A stretch of 63,508 bases of DNA, the filler included, from Candidatus Woesearchaeota archaeon (GTDB lineage Archaea; Nanobdellota; Nanobdellia; Woesearchaeales; J072), in assembly GCA_003695265.1 (NCBI GenBank). It is 6 parts of 6 records of this genome, joined end to end, with 100 filler letters (N's around TTAATTAATTAA, not from the genome) between each part and the next. Parts side by side here need not be neighbours in the genome. Positions count along the whole stretch, not along the records: positions 60,653 to 63,508 come from RFII01000095.1; 5 more parts are not named here. The stretch is one strand, 5' to 3'. Made by a program: the position numbers and the translations under genes. Every line of letters begins with the position of its first letter. The stretch's first letter is position 1. The notes below the pieces were generated by a model. It did not search any database, was not told the DNA's origin, and saw only the letters and a list, made by a program, of their open reading frames with translations. This document shows positions 56,768 to 63,508 of this stretch, one piece after another.

Positions 56768-57484
56768 TTATTTTGTAATTAGTGAAGAAAAGTCAGTGAT
56801 TTTTGGCGTTTTCATCGGAATCTTGAAGTTTGTGCTCCAAAAACCGTAATTGCTATGGTCGCCGAACATCCCAACTCCGTACATGCCATGGTCTGAGAGG
56901 ATTATTAGTTTGTTGCATTTCTCTTTTATTTGAGCTGCCATTTCGTCAAGCTCGCGGTAAATCATCCTCATCATAGTCTTGTTCCCAAAGTTGAGGTGGC
57001 CTATGACGTCTGCAACGCTGAAATATCCTAGGACAAAGTCATGGTCTTCATTCAGCGCTTTGAAGAATTCTTCCTTTATTTTTTTGTGGTGCTCAAACGC
57101 GTCCTTATTGTACTCTTCTCTAATCTTTTCTTTTTCCTGCTCGTCTTCTGTTGTGAAGAAGGCTTTAAGCAGTTTTCTTGACCTCTCGTGCGCTTCCAAG
57201 TCGTAGCTGAATCCTGGAAGGTCTAAGACAACAGGGCTTTTGAAATGCGAGAAAAAAGTCTCTTTTAAATCCCATTTCTTGCTCCACATTTCCTTGTTGC
57301 CGTCTTCTAGCACATCCTTCTCCTTGTTTTTTCCTGTGCTGAACGAGCTCCACAGCACCATTGTCCTTGGCTGGCTGAACTCGCTTATGTCAGTCTTGCC
57401 GTAGTAGTCCTGCTTTAGGTTCTTGCAGTCAAACTCCTCCACTAAGTTGTATTCCAAAGCGTCTATTGCGAACACAACAATCAT
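56768..57484 (-). CDS. Alkaline phosphatase superfamily (NPP/phosphodiesterase-like) protein
   Basis: IDAL, Thr-nucleophile region [26 protein letters not shown]. Confidence 0.8.
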
Positions 57485-58728
57485 TTTTCCTCACCCATAA
57501 TTATTATTCCGCCACCTGCTGTGTCAAGTCCCTTCTCAATAACAAACCTTCCCAGCTCTGGAGTTTTGTTAAAGTCGTCAACAATAATCTCCTTGTTTGT
57601 TTTTAGGATTACTTCTCCGACTTCCATGTTTCTCAGCTCAGAAGCGTCTTTTTCCAGTACCTCGAACGTTGACGAGTCAATCCTCTTCTCAATTTTTTCT
57701 ATGTCGCAGCTCGCTTCTTCTGTCGCGCATTTGAGCGTGACTGTTTCCCCTTTTCTTAAAGGGTCTTTTGACATCCAGAACAGGTTTGCTTTCACTGTGC
57801 TCGTTACTATTGGCTTGTCTTCCTTGTCTGACAGCACCATTCCCCTGTCTATAAACGCCTTTTCTTTCGTGACGATTCCCGTGCTCTCGCCGCAAACTGC
57901 TTTCTTCTTGTCTGGGTTGAGGAATTCTTCAACGCTTGCTATAACAGCGTTTTCTTCTGTAGGCAATATCAAAACCTTGTCTCCCTCGCTTATAGTCCCT
58001 GCCTCAACTCTGCCCACGATTATTCTCTTATCATCTATCTTGTAAACGTCTTGAACAGGCATTCTTAACGCCAAGTTGCTCCTGTCCATTTTTGACTTGA
58101 ACGTGTCTAAAGCTTCTAGGATTGTCATTCCTTCAAACCATTTCATGTTCTCTGATTTTTTTGCAACATTATCTCCTTCTTTTGCTGATATTGGGATTAT
58201 GTAAGTTGGCTCATTGGCTCCTATCTTGTTAAGGAACTCTTTTATGTCCTTGCTGACCTCTTTGAACCTTGACTCATCATAATTGACTAAGTCCATCTTG
58301 TTTATTACCACAATGACCTGGTCTAGGCCGAGCATTTTTAGGATGTAGGCATGCCTTTTTGTCTGCTCTTGGACGCCTTCCTCAGCGTCAACTATGAGGA
58401 TTGCTGCCTCTGCCTGGCTCGCGCCTGTGATCATGTTTTTGGTGAATTCCCTGTGGCCTGGAGCGTCTATTATGACGTAATCCCTTTTCTTTGTGCTGAA
58501 AAACGTTTGTGCAGTGTCAATTGTTATGCCCTGGTCTCTTTCTTCTTCCAAATGGTCCATTACGTAGGCGAACTCAAGCTCTTTTCCCAATGAGTCGCAT
58601 ATTTTTTTGACTTCCTCAATCTTCTCTTTTGGCAAGCAGCCAGTGTCAAAGAACAATCTTCCTATTAATGTTGATTTGCCGTGGTCAACATGTCCGACAA
58701 TGACAAATTTCAAGTGCTCCTTTCCCAT
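57481..58728 (-). CDS. cysN: Sulfate adenylyltransferase GTPase subunit (no CysC fusion)
   Basis: [32 protein letters not shown]; adjacent to cysD. Confidence 0.88.
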
Positions 58729-58932
58729 TTACCTTACACCCCACTTTATTGAGTTCCATGCCCTTTCGTGAGCAAAGTACAATGCCATTTTTACGATTGC
58801 TTCTGTTAGCCCAACACCAAATGATATTATAAGGTTTCCTGTGAAAACCCAAACCAGAACCATTGTTGTAAGGCTTGCCACAATTCTCCAGCTGATCGCC
58901 TTTGCTAGGGACCTTCTTTTTCTCTCATTCAT
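58729..58932 (-). CDS. DUF2061 small membrane protein
   Basis: RSLAKAISWR...YFAHERAW..IKWG. Confidence 0.85.
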   Translation of the reverse strand: MNERKRRSLAKAISWRIVASLTTMVLVWVFTGNLIISFGVGLTEAIVKMALYFAHERAWNSIKWGVR

Positions 58933-58934
58933 TT

Positions 58935-59747
58935 TTACATGTAACCCAAAGACCTTAGCTTCTGCATCATGTAGGCAGCTTCCTTGTCTTGGGATCTTCC
59001 GCTTCTCTCAGCAACTTTTGTTGTTTTGAGCTCCTCAATAATCTTGTCTATGTCGTCAGCGTTCGAGTCTATTGGGTGGCAGCATGGCTCGCAGCCTATG
59101 CTTCTGTAGCGCTTGCCGTTCTTAGCAAAGTAAAGGCTGACCACTGGGATGTTCTCTCTTTTTATGTAACGCCAGATATCCAGTTCAGTCCAGTGAAGCA
59201 TGGGGTGGACTCTTATATGCTGTTCGCCCTCCTGCTTGTTCTTGTACTGGTCCCAGAGCTCAGGAGGCTGGTCCTTGTAGTTCCACTGAAATTCCTTGTT
59301 TCTCGGCGAGAAGACGCGCTCTTTTGCTCTTATTCCATGCTCGTCACGCCTTATTCCAAGAAGCAATGCTTTGAAGCCGTGCTTTGCAATGGCCTGCTTC
59401 AGGGCTTCTGTCTTGAGCTGGCCGCAGCACTGCAGTGCTCCGCTTGTCTTGCAGTTAACACCTCTCTTCAATGCTTCCTCATTCCTTCCTATGACTAGGT
59501 TGAATCCCCACTCCTTAGCCCATTTGTCCCGAAACTCGTAAATCTCTTTGAACTTGAAGGAAGTGTCAATGTGCAGAGCTGGAAAAGGAACCTTGCCGTA
59601 GAATGCCTTCCTTACAAGCCACATAAGTGTTGTTGAGTCTTTGCCTATGCTCCAGAGAACAGCTATGTTCTTGAACTGCTTGTAAGCTTCTCTTATAATG
59701 TAAATGCTCTTGCTTTCCAGTTCGTCAAGATGGTCCATTTTTTGCAC
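58935..59747 (-). CDS. cysD: Sulfate adenylyltransferase subunit 2
   Basis: LESKSIYIIRE, WSIGKDS, HIDT, LKT..L, GIRRDE..RAKERVFS, YRSIGC. Confidence 0.93.
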   Translation of the reverse strand: MQKMDHLDELESKSIYIIREAYKQFKNIAVLWSIGKDSTTLMWLVRKAFYGKVPFPALHIDTSFKFKEIYEFRDKWAKEWGFNLVIGRNEEALKRGVNCKTSGALQCCGQLKTEALKQAIAKHGFKALLLGIRRDEHGIRAKERVFSPRNKEFQWNYKDQPPELWDQYKNKQEGEQHIRVHPMLHWTELDIWRYIKRENIPVVSLYFAKNGKRYRSIGCEPCCHPIDSNADDIDKIIEELKTTKVAERSGRSQDKEAAYMMQKLRSLGYM

Positions 59748-60552: not shown

Positions 60553-60652
60553 NNNNNNNNNNNNNNNNNNNNNNNNNNNNNNNNNNNNNNNNNNNNTTAA
60601 TTAATTAANNNNNNNNNNNNNNNNNNNNNNNNNNNNNNNNNNNNNNNNNNNN
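60553..60652. other. Artificial contig linker
   Basis: N44-TTAATTAATTAA-N44. Confidence 0.98.
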
Positions 60653-60654
60653 AA

Positions 60655-61812
60655 ATAAGGGAATCTCTTAACGTTTATGCTGTTCACTCATCGTTTTCTG
60701 AAGCGCTGCTTTACCCGTTCGGCCCTGAAATATTAATCGATGCGACTAACAGCCCTGAGTCAAAGCAAAAGTGCATTAGCTACGCAAGCAAGTACAACAT
60801 ACCTTTCTTTTCTGCTTCCACCAATAAAGACAGAGGAGCCCTTGTTGTTTTCAGGCCGAAAAACAAGATTGCAACACTCCTTTCTGGAAGCTTAGAATCT
60901 TTGCTTTTGAATGAATTCAAAGGCCAAGCCCAAGGAAATTATTCAAGCGGCGTGATTGCAGGTTTGGCAACTGAAGAAGTGAGAAAATCAGTGTTCCAAA
61001 TAAAAGAATATGATCACCCTCTAAAGAATGGTTCTGTTATTTATTATAACATTAATTCCTCAAACCGTGTTGGAAGGCAATCTGATCTTAGGGAGCTGCT
61101 TTTGGACTATTACAAGGAGTTTAACGTTTTGATTATAGGAGCGGGTGCAATAGGCAATTTTGTTGCTTTAAACCTTGCAATGATGGGCGTAGGCAACATT
61201 GACATAATGGATGATGATTTTATTGACCATACCAACACTCACAGGCAAATACTCTTTTACGGAAACAGGATAGGAGAAAAAAAGGCAAAAGTGCTTTGTG
61301 AGAGGATTAAAGAAATAAACCCGAATGTGAGCTCGCATCCTTTGGTTGAAAAGTTTACTGAAGGTCATGAGGGCCTGATAAAGAACGGGAATGGAAACGG
61401 GCCTTATGATTTAATATTTACTTGCGTGGATAACCAGTACTCGCGATACATCATTAATGAGTTTGCGGTTGAGTATAATGTCCCAGTAGTGGATGGTGGC
61501 ACAGGGCCTACATCAGGCCAAGTTGCTGTTTTTGTTCCTGGCTACACACGCTGCGTAACATGCCAGAGAAACCTGAAAAAGAAGAAGAAAGTCGTTGTTA
61601 ACTGCAGGGAAGCAGAGCCCTCTGTTGTTATCCCAAACATAATAATAGGTAGCGCCATGTGCGGTGAGGCAAAGCGCATCTTGTATAAAGGCATTGATTA
61701 CACTGCTCCGAGAATCCTTGTTTATGATGCTTTTTCTGTGGGTAGGTTACAAACCAGGCCGGTTTTAATAGATAAAAGGAGGAAATGCCAATGTCAAACA
61801 AAACTCAATTAG
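60655..61812 (+). CDS. E1-like ThiF/MoeB protein with two tandem ThiF domains, 5' truncated
   Basis: Frame open from contig edge: ILIDATNS..KYNIPF..SSGVIAGLATEEVRK (end of domain 1), then IIGAGAIG, D.D..NTHRQ, KA, CVDN, CVTC, NC, KCQC. Confidence 0.85.
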   Translation: MRESLNVYAVHSSFSEALLYPFGPEILIDATNSPESKQKCISYASKYNIPFFSASTNKDRGALVVFRPKNKIATLLSGSLESLLLNEFKGQAQGNYSSGVIAGLATEEVRKSVFQIKEYDHPLKNGSVIYYNINSSNRVGRQSDLRELLLDYYKEFNVLIIGAGAIGNFVALNLAMMGVGNIDIMDDDFIDHTNTHRQILFYGNRIGEKKAKVLCERIKEINPNVSSHPLVEKFTEGHEGLIKNGNGNGPYDLIFTCVDNQYSRYIINEFAVEYNVPVVDGGTGPTSGQVAVFVPGYTRCVTCQRNLKKKKKVVVNCREAEPSVVIPNIIIGSAMCGEAKRILYKGIDYTAPRILVYDAFSVGRLQTRPVLIDKRRKCQCQTKLN

Positions 61813-62852
61813 AAGAATCTGTGGAAGAAGCAACATTTGAAACTGAGAAGGATTTGCCTGTTGACAAACATGAGGAAAAAATTCAGAAAATAAAGGATTA
61901 CATTGAGTGGAGAAAGAACTCTGAAAAAGAAAGAGCTGCTGTGAAGAAAATAAGGCGCCTTCTTGTAGAGCATTACAATGCTGAGATAGAAAAAAGGATT
62001 TCTGCCTATGTGAATGGTAAGGGAAACATTCCCGACCCGCTTAAAAGGATTCGTATTACGCGAGAGGCGTATGACAAGGCAAACCTCATAGCAAGGAAGG
62101 TTGTGGAAATGGCAGGAGCTCCTGTTGAGATTCACGCATGGGCTTTAAATCCGAGGGAAAAGCAGGAAAAAGGAGACATTGCGATTCGTGACTTGTACAT
62201 AGCGCATGATCAGGAAGTAACTCCATCTCACTGCAAAGCAACTTCAAGTGGGAAAATAAAAAGTTATTGGGATATTAAAAAAAACACTGATCAGAAAGTT
62301 GTTGGGTACATGCATTCGCACGGCTATTTTATGCCTTTTCTTTCACTCACTGATAAGGAAAACCTTGATGGCCTTGTTTTTGACCACGGCATTTCTTTTG
62401 AAATAAACCTTTTGGATGATGAGGAAGGAGAAGATGAGGTTATTTACAGGGCAAAATACGCTGTTAGCATTATTTTTAACGCCCTCGGCTCAAAGCCTTT
62501 TGGTGCTTTAGGAATAACATACAAGCCACTGTCAGAAGACGGTCTTGCCTCTGCTAAAACAGTTAGTAAAAACACACCTATCGAGGTGATTGATGAGTCA
62601 AACAACATTTCGCTTGACCCTGAAGAGATCGCAGAGCAGATTTCACAGAGAGTTTATTATAATGGTTGCTTGATTGGTGAAGCTTCCTCAAAAAAAGAAG
62701 ATAATCCTTCTGAACATGTTTCTCTAGATGACCTTCTCGCCAGAATAACCGTAATGGAGAAACAAGTCAGATCATTCGCAGATGAAAACATTTCCTGCTT
62801 GCAGTCACTAAAAAAAGATTTAAAGGCTTTTTACGGTGAGAAAACATCTTAA
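61791..62852 (+). CDS. JAB/MPN+ (JAMM) metalloprotease domain protein
   Basis: PVEIHAW..VGYMHSHGYFMPFLSLTD matches E..HxHx7Sx2D; RBS AGGAGG; overlaps the E1 3' end. Confidence 0.85.
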   Translation: MSNKTQLEESVEEATFETEKDLPVDKHEEKIQKIKDYIEWRKNSEKERAAVKKIRRLLVEHYNAEIEKRISAYVNGKGNIPDPLKRIRITREAYDKANLIARKVVEMAGAPVEIHAWALNPREKQEKGDIAIRDLYIAHDQEVTPSHCKATSSGKIKSYWDIKKNTDQKVVGYMHSHGYFMPFLSLTDKENLDGLVFDHGISFEINLLDDEEGEDEVIYRAKYAVSIIFNALGSKPFGALGITYKPLSEDGLASAKTVSKNTPIEVIDESNNISLDPEEIAEQISQRVYYNGCLIGEASSKKEDNPSEHVSLDDLLARITVMEKQVRSFADENISCLQSLKKDLKAFYGEKTS

Positions 62853-62937
62853 AACTCATGCTTGGCGGAAAATCAGTGACTTTTTTTTAATAAAATTTAT
62901 TAATCAAAAATGAATTTGTAATAATTGGTGTGGTTAT

Positions 62938-63384
62938 TTGGTTTCAAAAAAAGATGCGTTAATACTTTGCAATCTTAGAAGAAATTCCAGGCAAAGCATT
63001 GCTAAAATCGGAAAGAATTCTGGGATTCCTGCTTCTACTGTTTTTGACAGGCTTAGAAAGCTTGAGGGAAACATAATAAGCAAGTACGTTTCCTTAATCG
63101 ACTTTCAGAAGATTGGCTATCATATCAGGCTGTTCTTTGTTTTCAAGGCTTTTGACAAGGAAAAATTGAAGAAATTTCTTATTAACCACCAGAACATAAA
63201 TTCTGTTCACTCTGTTCATGGAGAAAACGATTTCTTTGTTGAGGCTGTCTTTAAGGACTTAAACCAGTTTGAGAGTTTTCTTGAAGATCTTAACAATAAT
63301 GAAATAAAAGAAAAGGATTATTACTATGTTGTTGAAGAGCTGAAAAGAGAATCCTTTCTTTCTGAGCCAGAGCATTTTTACTGA
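62938..63384 (+). CDS. Lrp/AsnC family transcriptional regulator
   Basis: D..IL..LRRNSR.S...STVFDRLRKL, IDFQKIGY, VHGENDFFVE. Confidence 0.92.
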   Translation: MVSKKDALILCNLRRNSRQSIAKIGKNSGIPASTVFDRLRKLEGNIISKYVSLIDFQKIGYHIRLFFVFKAFDKEKLKKFLINHQNINSVHSVHGENDFFVEAVFKDLNQFESFLEDLNNNEIKEKDYYYVVEELKRESFLSEPEHFY

Positions 63385-63508
63385 GAGAATAATTGCTTAA
63401 AACCCCTCCTCCGAAAATTTTTCAGTTTTTTCCTTAATTTTTACGAAAATTACGGAAAAAACAATCTTTTTTCTGAAAAAAACATATAAATTGGCAGCTC
63501 ATTATCTC

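Follow-up and report, generated by a model that had tools for sequence, protein, structure and literature searches.

The window analysed here (63,508 nucleotides of the Candidatus Woesearchaeota archaeon assembly GCA_003695265.1, in which separate contigs are joined with N spacers) ends in a 2856-bp contig, C47 of G000, the window's own genome, at positions 60653-63508. This contig carries two overlapping genes, a 5'-truncated E1 with two ThiF-type adenylation domains in one chain and a JAB/JAMM metalloprotease (Table 1), which are apparently the surviving half of a four-gene ubiquitin-style tagging cassette, so far undescribed as it seems, whose other two members would be a ubiquitin-like protein (Ubl) and an E2.

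Table 1. Features at and around the E1-JAB locus (positions in the window; aa, amino acids)
Feature	Position	Strand	Remarks
Tandem-ThiF E1 (inactive and active adenylation domain), 5'-truncated at the contig edge	60655..61812	+	385 of about 480 aa
Inactive adenylation domain, C-terminal two thirds	60655..61086	+	DATN replaces CVDN; without CxxC and without catalytic Cys
Active adenylation domain	61087..61812	+	P-loop G162 (61138), N194/R197/K210/D259, Zn C300/C303/C378/C380, C317 (61603-61605)
JAB/JAMM metalloprotease with N- and C-terminal extensions	61785..62852	+	E115 (62127), H177 (62313), H179, S187, D190
Lrp/AsnC-type regulator	62938..63384	+	relative within 7 kb of 10 of 101 tandem-E1 loci
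Contig break, N spacers	60553..60652	.	predicted Ubl and E2 genes would fall here

As an earlier note on this DNA had claimed, the E1 frame is open from the contig edge at 60655 to the stop at 61812 (385 aa) and begins with the second part of another ThiF domain, which has the DATN segment and lacks CxxC. Pfam ThiF matches the protein in two stretches (E 6.8e-50). Full-length homologs measure 455-520 aa; the window E1 aligns with them from its residue 1 (43% across residues 1-375), and about 93 of the 491 model positions are absent at its 5' end, so that the degenerate P-loop and the Arg finger are not seen in this copy. The second, complete domain has every motif that had been read in it, namely GAGAIG (G162/G164), N194-R197-Q198, K210, CVDN (D259), the Zn ligands C300/C303 and C378/C380, and C317 at the catalytic position. 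In the 82 aligned E1s the GxG, D, N, R, K and D of this active domain and the crossover-loop Cys (C317 here) are invariant (82/82), with 11-56 residues from CxxC to the Cys (<28 in 79 of 82) and 9-13 from the Cys to a conserved Asn. The inactive domain of the same E1s has a P-loop of the form G-S-[DG]-x-L-A, not GxGxxG, an Asn at the position of the Mg-binding Asp, and neither Zn nor catalytic Cys; its N-terminal Arg is kept in 73 of the 82. There is no C-terminal ubiquitin-fold domain, as the window E1 stops 5 residues past the last Zn Cys.

Searched alone, the N-terminal piece of the window E1 matched no solved structure. The family profile of the N-terminal half aligns with the active half at an hhalign probability of 99.7 (E 2.8e-27), in agreement with the suggestion that the upstream segment is ThiF-like, and it also matches UBA1, MoeB, SAE1 and NAE1; judged by these profiles, the two halves of the E1 are homologous. 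At two loci (L035:5917-7353 and L148:6149-7541) the tandem E1 is written as two open reading frames (ORFs), corresponding to the inactive and active halves, through either a frameshift or a natural split like that of SAE1/UBA2.

The protease gene, for which the ATG at 61791 (GGAGG at 61778-61782) is the likelier start, does carry the intact JAMM motif reported earlier (E115 and HSH-x7-S-xx-D, residues 177-190), and scores barely above the cut-off of Pfam Prok-JAB (25.6 bits). Among its 59 family members the E, H, H, S and D are kept in 58, 58, 58, 54 and 59, respectively, and the best solved relatives of the family are CsRpn11, JAMM1 and Rpn11.

The company that these genes keep was established from related loci. 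Of 101 distinct tandem-E1 loci, 95 have the JAB, 93 an E2-like gene, 79 a Ubl and 74 all four, the profiles behind this count having been built partly from many of the same loci; where there is enough flank (71 of the 101), the figures are 69, 67, 59 and 56. In an independent set of 40 loci outside profile building, chosen by the 437-aa (E2) family alone and with several misses at contig ends, 36 contain a tandem E1, 31 a JAB, 30 a Ubl and 27 all four. Thus, the Ubl and E2 genes that the earlier note had placed upstream do exist in related loci; of the partners it had named for such a search, beta-grasp and E2 genes were found, and a RING gene was not seen (none among 49 neighbour representatives, the clustering having left out proteins <90 aa). 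The prevailing gene orders are Ubl-E2-JAB-E1 (27 loci) and Ubl-E2-E1-JAB (23 loci). The window order, E1-JAB, therefore fits the second, as in L026, and L026, L032 and L025, whose E1s stand nearest to the window E1 in the tree, all have complete cassettes. At the window locus itself the Ubl and E2 genes very probably lie upstream. A second, four-gene copy of the cassette is present in the same genome (G000:C57:1-4373, L004), consisting of a small gene cut by the contig start, a 437-aa gene, a JAB and a 491-aa tandem E1; the last strand of its Ubl ends E-G-A, and its closest relative, L036, has an ARC-like ATPase upstream.

It could be argued that the window copy is an E1-JAB module without Ubl or E2 of its own, which either works with the Ubl and E2 of C57 or is decaying. 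No second full Ubl or E2, nor an E1 N-terminus with which to extend the contig, was found in the G000 assembly; L120, from a complete genome, has E1-JAB alone; and G000 contains orphan genes for a Cys-less E2 (C77) and a Gly-less Ubl-like protein (C24). However, an E2 accompanies 67 of the 71 well-flanked loci and E1-JAB stands alone in 1, the contig ends within the gene, so that its neighbours are simply missing, and all the catalytic residues are intact; we regard this explanation as improbable. The one public run that contains the stretch also breaks, at 60657.

The Ubl and E2 match no Pfam family, which is why standard annotation misses the cassette: sequence searches of Pfam, PADLOC, NCBIfam and PDB with both proteins were blank, and at E<=1 PF00179 and PF00240 matched none of 23 E2s and none of 18 Ubls, while a Thermoplasmatota E2 (see below) does match. 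The Atlas gave nothing for the Ubl; for the E2 it pointed weakly to Prok-E2_D (0.88, 11% of members). Structure prediction was more informative. The AlphaFold2 (AF2) model of the Ubl of L026 (132 aa, pLDDT 91.7), compared with 48,161 chains, has mostly ubiquitin-fold domains among its best 50 matches (Z 6.6-8.1), the best at Z 8.1 with a root-mean-square deviation (rmsd) of 2.5 over 83 aligned residues and the BilA entry 8tyz_B, from a bacterial E1-E2-Ubl complex, at Z 6.8; Foldseek returned no match for it at E<=0.001. On this model the protein has a beta-grasp/ubiquitin fold, an assignment at the level of fold only. Only one column is near-invariant, a Gly that follows the last strand (47 of 52), and 51 of 52 have a tail of 1-46 aa beyond it; this combination indicates a pro-protein that needs the JAB.

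In the case of the E2-like protein (445 aa, pLDDT 82.3), a second-look structure search with the AF2 model gave E2/UBC entries in 49 of the best 50 (Z 5.8-6.7, about 131 aligned, rmsd 4.2-5.4), and in a wide search E2s were the main matches outside helical bundles. In the family motif, Y-x-H-P-F...I-C, the Cys is present in 107 of 107 members, the His in 99 and the Pro in 105, at a His-to-Cys spacing of 10 in 37; only F311, H342, P343 and C352 are near-invariant, the His preceding the Cys. Since the structural alignment begins at residue 108, helix 1 probably spans about residues 108-125, and a beta+helix module is repeated, with one copy at the N-terminus and another between helix 1 and the sheet (probability 97, E 3e-11). 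As modelled, the large protein is a UBC-fold E2 with its catalytic Cys after His-Pro. A complex prediction with E1, Ubl and E2 residues 272-445 scored 0.02, which speaks neither for nor against the complex, the E2 cut having probably left out helix 1. Genes that resemble the two partners also occur by themselves: in the window's genome these are a stand-alone E2-domain paralog that lacks the Cys (G000:C77:1702-2316, minus strand) and an ORF with weak likeness to the Ubl that lacks the Gly (G000:C24:19-534, plus strand; E 0.022), possible decoys or adaptors with which L211:6170-6769 belongs.

With these partners in hand, the two window genes probably encode the E1 and the JAB of a ubiquitin-like conjugation cassette of four genes (Ubl, E2, E1, JAB). 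Several observations pull the other way. The Ubl and E2 of the window locus are unassembled, and L120/L212, a close E1-JAB pair in one complete genome, has no Ubl or E2 adjoining; 5 of the 52 aligned Ubls, an alignment with 5 rows added by eye, lack the Gly. The E2 is matched by no sequence in Pfam or PDB and, as a model, by nothing in Foldseek at E<=0.001; its structural Z is middling (<8), its profile is non-significant against true UBCs (E 0.19, with the Cys in register), and in 80 of 107 members a Phe takes the position of the Asn in the HPN motif of E2s. A cysteine desulfurase-like gene is found near 5 of the 101 loci.

This last gene would suit a sulfur relay, with the beta-grasp protein as a sulfur carrier like ThiS, MoaD or Urm1 that the JAB would mature and the E1 would thiocarboxylate, and so would the radical SAM gene that one subclade has downstream, the best NCBIfam scores of the E1s, which belong to ThiF/MoeB models and are all under cut-off, and the sulfur operons of E1, JAB and ThiS known from the accessible part of PMC1779556. 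An E2-fold protein with an invariant Cys, as present in 93 of 101 loci, is however foreign to sulfur relays, a rhodanese domain is not among the families listed for the 82 E1s, and the E1 branches apart from MoeB/ThiF. Moreover, ThiS and MoaE were not found in G000, which is 94.6% complete (control searches positive in 11 of 14), and the ThiS/MoaD setting that the earlier note had named as one that would refute its proposal is thus not what we see. A sulfur relay role is unlikely, and we give it very little credence.

What the analysis shows is the linkage of the genes, their folds as predicted, and the conservation of every catalytic residue; how conjugation would proceed we infer on the model of BilABCD and of the Caldiarchaeum system, as we do the upstream genes at the window locus and the purpose discussed below. 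The JAB would trim the 1-46-residue tail of the pro-Ubl and expose its Gly. The single-chain E1 would work as a pseudo-dimer, its inactive domain supplying an Arg to the one active site, and would adenylate the Gly of the Ubl before forming a thioester on Cys317. The Ubl would then be transferred to the invariant Cys of the E2, which, without an E3, would conjugate it to a target lysine, the two repeated beta+helix modules perhaps being arms for binding the target or a partner; the JAB may also take the tag off.

Of 301 genomes of the order, 64, or about one in five, have a member of the E2 family (G120, which was counted only, is included), as do 48 of 301 genomes of a phylum sample, 14 of these in other orders of the class; in 13 of those other-order genomes, 14 of 14 loci have the E1 adjoining the E2. 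Judged by their labels, tandem-E1 loci span Woesearchaeota, Nanoarchaeia/Nanobdellota, one Aenigmatarchaeota and several delta-proteobacteria, the E2 family being found in 9 of 201 genomes of a delta-proteobacterial phylum (that of L183), and the E2 profile matches 958 clusters at 50% identity. The DPANN-centred family of Ubl-conjugation cassettes is real and, apparently, undescribed. A different operon was seen in Thermoplasmatota (L168:6965-9195, L174, L178, L180 and L182), with a single-domain E1, a Ubl ending EGG, a canonical E2 (UQ_con E 1.6e-14) and a JAB.

In a tree of 38 rows the active domains of the family, together with the delta-proteobacterial and Aenigmatarchaeota ones, lie on one side of a branch (94/98), and UBA1 groups with UBA2/UBA3 (94/91). 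A sister relationship of the family's active domain to UBA1 was rejected (approximately unbiased (AU) test, p=0.007, 38 rows; a quick tree of 78 rows agrees), with UBA1 represented by two plant sequences only and BilD and the Asgard E1s absent. In the inactive-domain tree the UBA1 test gave a p-AU of 0.37, and inactive domains are not placed. The UBA1-like character proposed in the earlier note thus stands for the architecture and fails for the descent: because UBA1 sisterhood is rejected, the tandem layout likely arose independently of UBA1, within the limits of a sparse UBA1 sample, a tree without BilD or Asgard E1s and that p-AU of 0.37.

As to purpose, the neighbours of a minority of cassettes point to unfoldases. 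In 5 loci an ARC/Mpa-like ATPase (TIGR03689 about 1e-112, below cut-off) lies directly before the Ubl. Such an ATPase is found in 5 of 301 genomes of the order, before the cassette in 2, before Pup-ligase genes in 2 and before neither in 1, and its being shared between the two suggests that the Ubl is able to mark proteins for an unfoldase. A ClpX-like gene lies inside the cassette in 9 of the 9 E2-positive genomes of the bacterial phylum and in one archaeon. This delta-proteobacterial form (L163, L167, L170, L176, L183, L201-L208) consists of Ubl, E2, a gene of 130-230 aa, a ClpX-like ATPase, JAB and tandem E1, its Ubl ending QEGG, often with no tail or a short one; L087, from an archaeal genome, has the same form. 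Proteasome subunits are present in the window's genome, in which an ARC ortholog was not found. The Pup-ligase loci deserve mention in their own right: in L228:6484-11662 (G021:C15) and L231:6556-15239 (G236:C2) the ARC/Mpa-like ATPase is followed by two or three genes of the Pup-ligase family (PF03136, E 1e-76 to 1e-137) with a small ORF between them, which ends GGQ in L228. From their sequences these appear to be pupylation operons in archaea of the order, and our literature search found no paper with pupylation in DPANN.

We lean, short of conviction, towards a cassette that marks cellular proteins, either for an AAA+ unfoldase/proteasome or in regulation, over antiviral defence, even though most loci, the window's included, have no adjoining ATPase and the loci with ClpX all belong to a single clade. 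A role in conflict would also fit the patchiness, the paralogy and the rapid divergence. There, the same chemistry would put the Ubl on a viral, host-cell or competitor protein, as BilABCD does on phage tail fibres, and the commonest gene order is indeed that of BilABCD, Ubl-E2-DUB-E1 (DUB, deubiquitinase). The distribution is patchy (64/301), with up to several paralogous cassettes per genome, divergence has been very fast, as the 958 clusters of the E2 family attest, and the tree implies transfer between archaea and bacteria. Nevertheless, among 148 proteins that flank 48 of the 101 loci, only 10 match PADLOC at E<=1e-8 (with no control set), and those 10 are generic domains (desulfurase, kinase, AAA, methyltransferase); no tandem-E1 locus is among 6 viral hits, the viral contigs having single-domain E1s only; and the ARC and ClpX neighbours point to proteolysis. 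An antiviral or conflict purpose is thus possible and rather doubtful. The viral contigs are themselves of note: three large ones in IMG/VR (L186, L189 and L191) carry a JAB and a single-domain E1, followed in two by a small protein ending QKG.

Carried further than we would assert, this preference for cellular tagging would mean that DPANN archaea have an independently assembled ubiquitin-proteasome pathway, in which the cassette, specific to the lineage, marks cellular proteins for AAA+ unfoldases, can swap places with pupylation behind one ARC-type ATPase, and has passed to or from delta-proteobacteria; on balance we think this unlikely. If it were true, the ClpX-wired delta-proteobacterial form would be a bacterial ubiquitin-to-Clp degradation route, and UBA1 and the single-chain E1 seen here would have acquired their layout separately. 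In any case, the cassette would add a further large family of Ubl conjugation, in reduced-genome DPANN archaea, with a minimal single-chain E1 of about 480 aa as a test case for the asymmetric evolution of E1s from MoeB-type homodimers. Its four small genes are open to direct reconstitution, and the link between a ubiquitin-fold tag and ARC/ClpX-type unfoldases can be tested.

Other genes near the cassettes are less constant. The Lrp/AsnC-type regulator is possibly associated with the cassette. A transglutaminase-like gene lies within 7 kb of 9 of the 101 tandem-E1 loci (L025:13536-14330, L027, L032, L039, L065, L086, L092, L158 and L165). One subclade (L045, L058 and L071) has a cysteine desulfurase-like gene and a 665-aa gene of no assigned role upstream, genes of 900-1240 aa downstream, and a Ubl that ends in a single Gly (IxPG). 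A single-protein locus scan gave no result. Left of the break, the genes belong to contig C42 and are not neighbours of the E1-JAB pair; among them is what we take, from its motifs, to be a sulfate adenylyltransferase-like pair of GTPase and PAPS-reductase-like subunits (57481-59747, minus strand), unlinked to the present finding.

Complete prokaryotic E1-E2-Ubl cascades have been described in Bil, Bub, CBASS and Caldiarchaeum/Asgard-type operons (10.1101/2023.09.26.559546, PMC11601596, PMC11601603 and PMC5654768; here and below we rely on the accessible parts of these sources). Our literature search found no description of the present cassette; supplementary operon tables of the Bil/Bub preprints and subscription journals, which could list such loci, lay outside it. 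A Woesearchaeota or DPANN ubiquitin operon was not found by term look-up in the available text and supplements of PMC8204110, PMC8421398, PMC11354881 and PMC5654768, and operon types 6a-6e of bacteria, as given in the accessible part of PMC1779556, do not describe the cassette. Likenesses and differences with the known systems are as follows: (i) eukaryotic UBA1, UBA6 and UBA7 also join an inactive and an active adenylation domain in one chain, and both halves of our E1 match UBA1; however, the E1 here is half the size, without FCCH, SCCH or UFD, and its active domain falls outside the UBA1/UBA2/UBA3 clade (AU p 0.007, two plant UBA1 only). (ii) The Ub-E1-E2-RING-Rpn11 systems of Caldiarchaeum and Asgard archaea share archaeal hosts, a JAMM-matured pro-Ubl, an E2 with His-Pro...Cys (PMC5654768) and, with CsRpn11, the best solved match of our JAB family. 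In contrast, their E1 contains a single adenylation domain and in most cases carries a Ubl domain at its C-terminus, and they use a canonical UBC (PF00179, with the HPN loop that the paper names), a ubiquitin (PF00240) and a RING E3 (PMC5654768), while the E1 here is tandem, without that domain, and Ubl and E2 match no Pfam family. (iii) Bub and CBASS Cap2 are likewise prokaryotic E1/E2/Ubl/JAB conjugation systems (PMC11601596, PMC11601603); yet Bub has Tyr/Ser oxyesters, fusions and DUF6527, and Cap2, a homodimer of an E2-E1 chain, acts on a CD-NTase, whereas in our cassette the E1 and E2 Cys never vary and the four proteins are encoded by separate genes. (iv) With the Pup-proteasome system (ARC/Mpa, Dop and PafA) the cassette has in common the ARC-like ATPase, which precedes Pup-ligase genes in two genomes and the cassette in others; tag and ligase chemistry are unrelated, and the link is seen in 5 loci only.

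The nearest parallel is BilABCD. The earlier note had set the UBA1-type layout against single-domain archaeal E1s; the layout itself is as described, but a tandem inactive and active E1 was already known among prokaryotes in BilD (10.1101/2023.09.26.559546). Both systems comprise Ubl, E2, JAB and E1 without an E3, in the same commonest order (all four in 74 of 101 loci; not seen for the truncated window locus) (10.1101/2023.09.26.559546; PMC11601596), a single-chain E1 with an Arg from the inactive domain, a 4-Cys Zn site and no ubiquitin-fold domain, and a pro-Ubl with a conserved Gly and tail (here 47/52 and 51/52). In searches for direct kinship, no entry named BilC is among 54 JAB structure matches and BilD is not among the best 60 PDB matches of the E1, results that leave room for kinship; a BilD search in plasmids gave MoeB/ThiF among the 40 of 94 matches listed. 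PF14459 was found in 0 of 201 bacterial genomes, where the controls were also silent, and it is not among the 25 families listed for the 82 E1s, the remaining families matching at most one member each and the model having had no positive control. The differences are nonetheless several: the Bil E1 has a helical CYS domain of about 80 aa in the crossover loop, where here the Cys sits in a short loop; BilD begins with PF14459 (Prok-E2_C), and the inactive domain here is plain ThiF-like; the His of the Bil E2 is C-terminal to the Cys (CEHH, type II), whereas here His-Pro comes before it. Our E2, of about 430 aa, carries a repeated module twice, with one copy inserted behind helix 1, the Ubl is about 45 residues longer, the JAB has long extensions, and the cassette is mainly found in DPANN archaea, with no defence-island context seen. 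Taken together, BilABCD has the tandem E1, the pro-Ubl, the JAB and the gene order in common with our cassette, and in this sense the kind is already known; the cassette works like BilABCD but is not a member of it.

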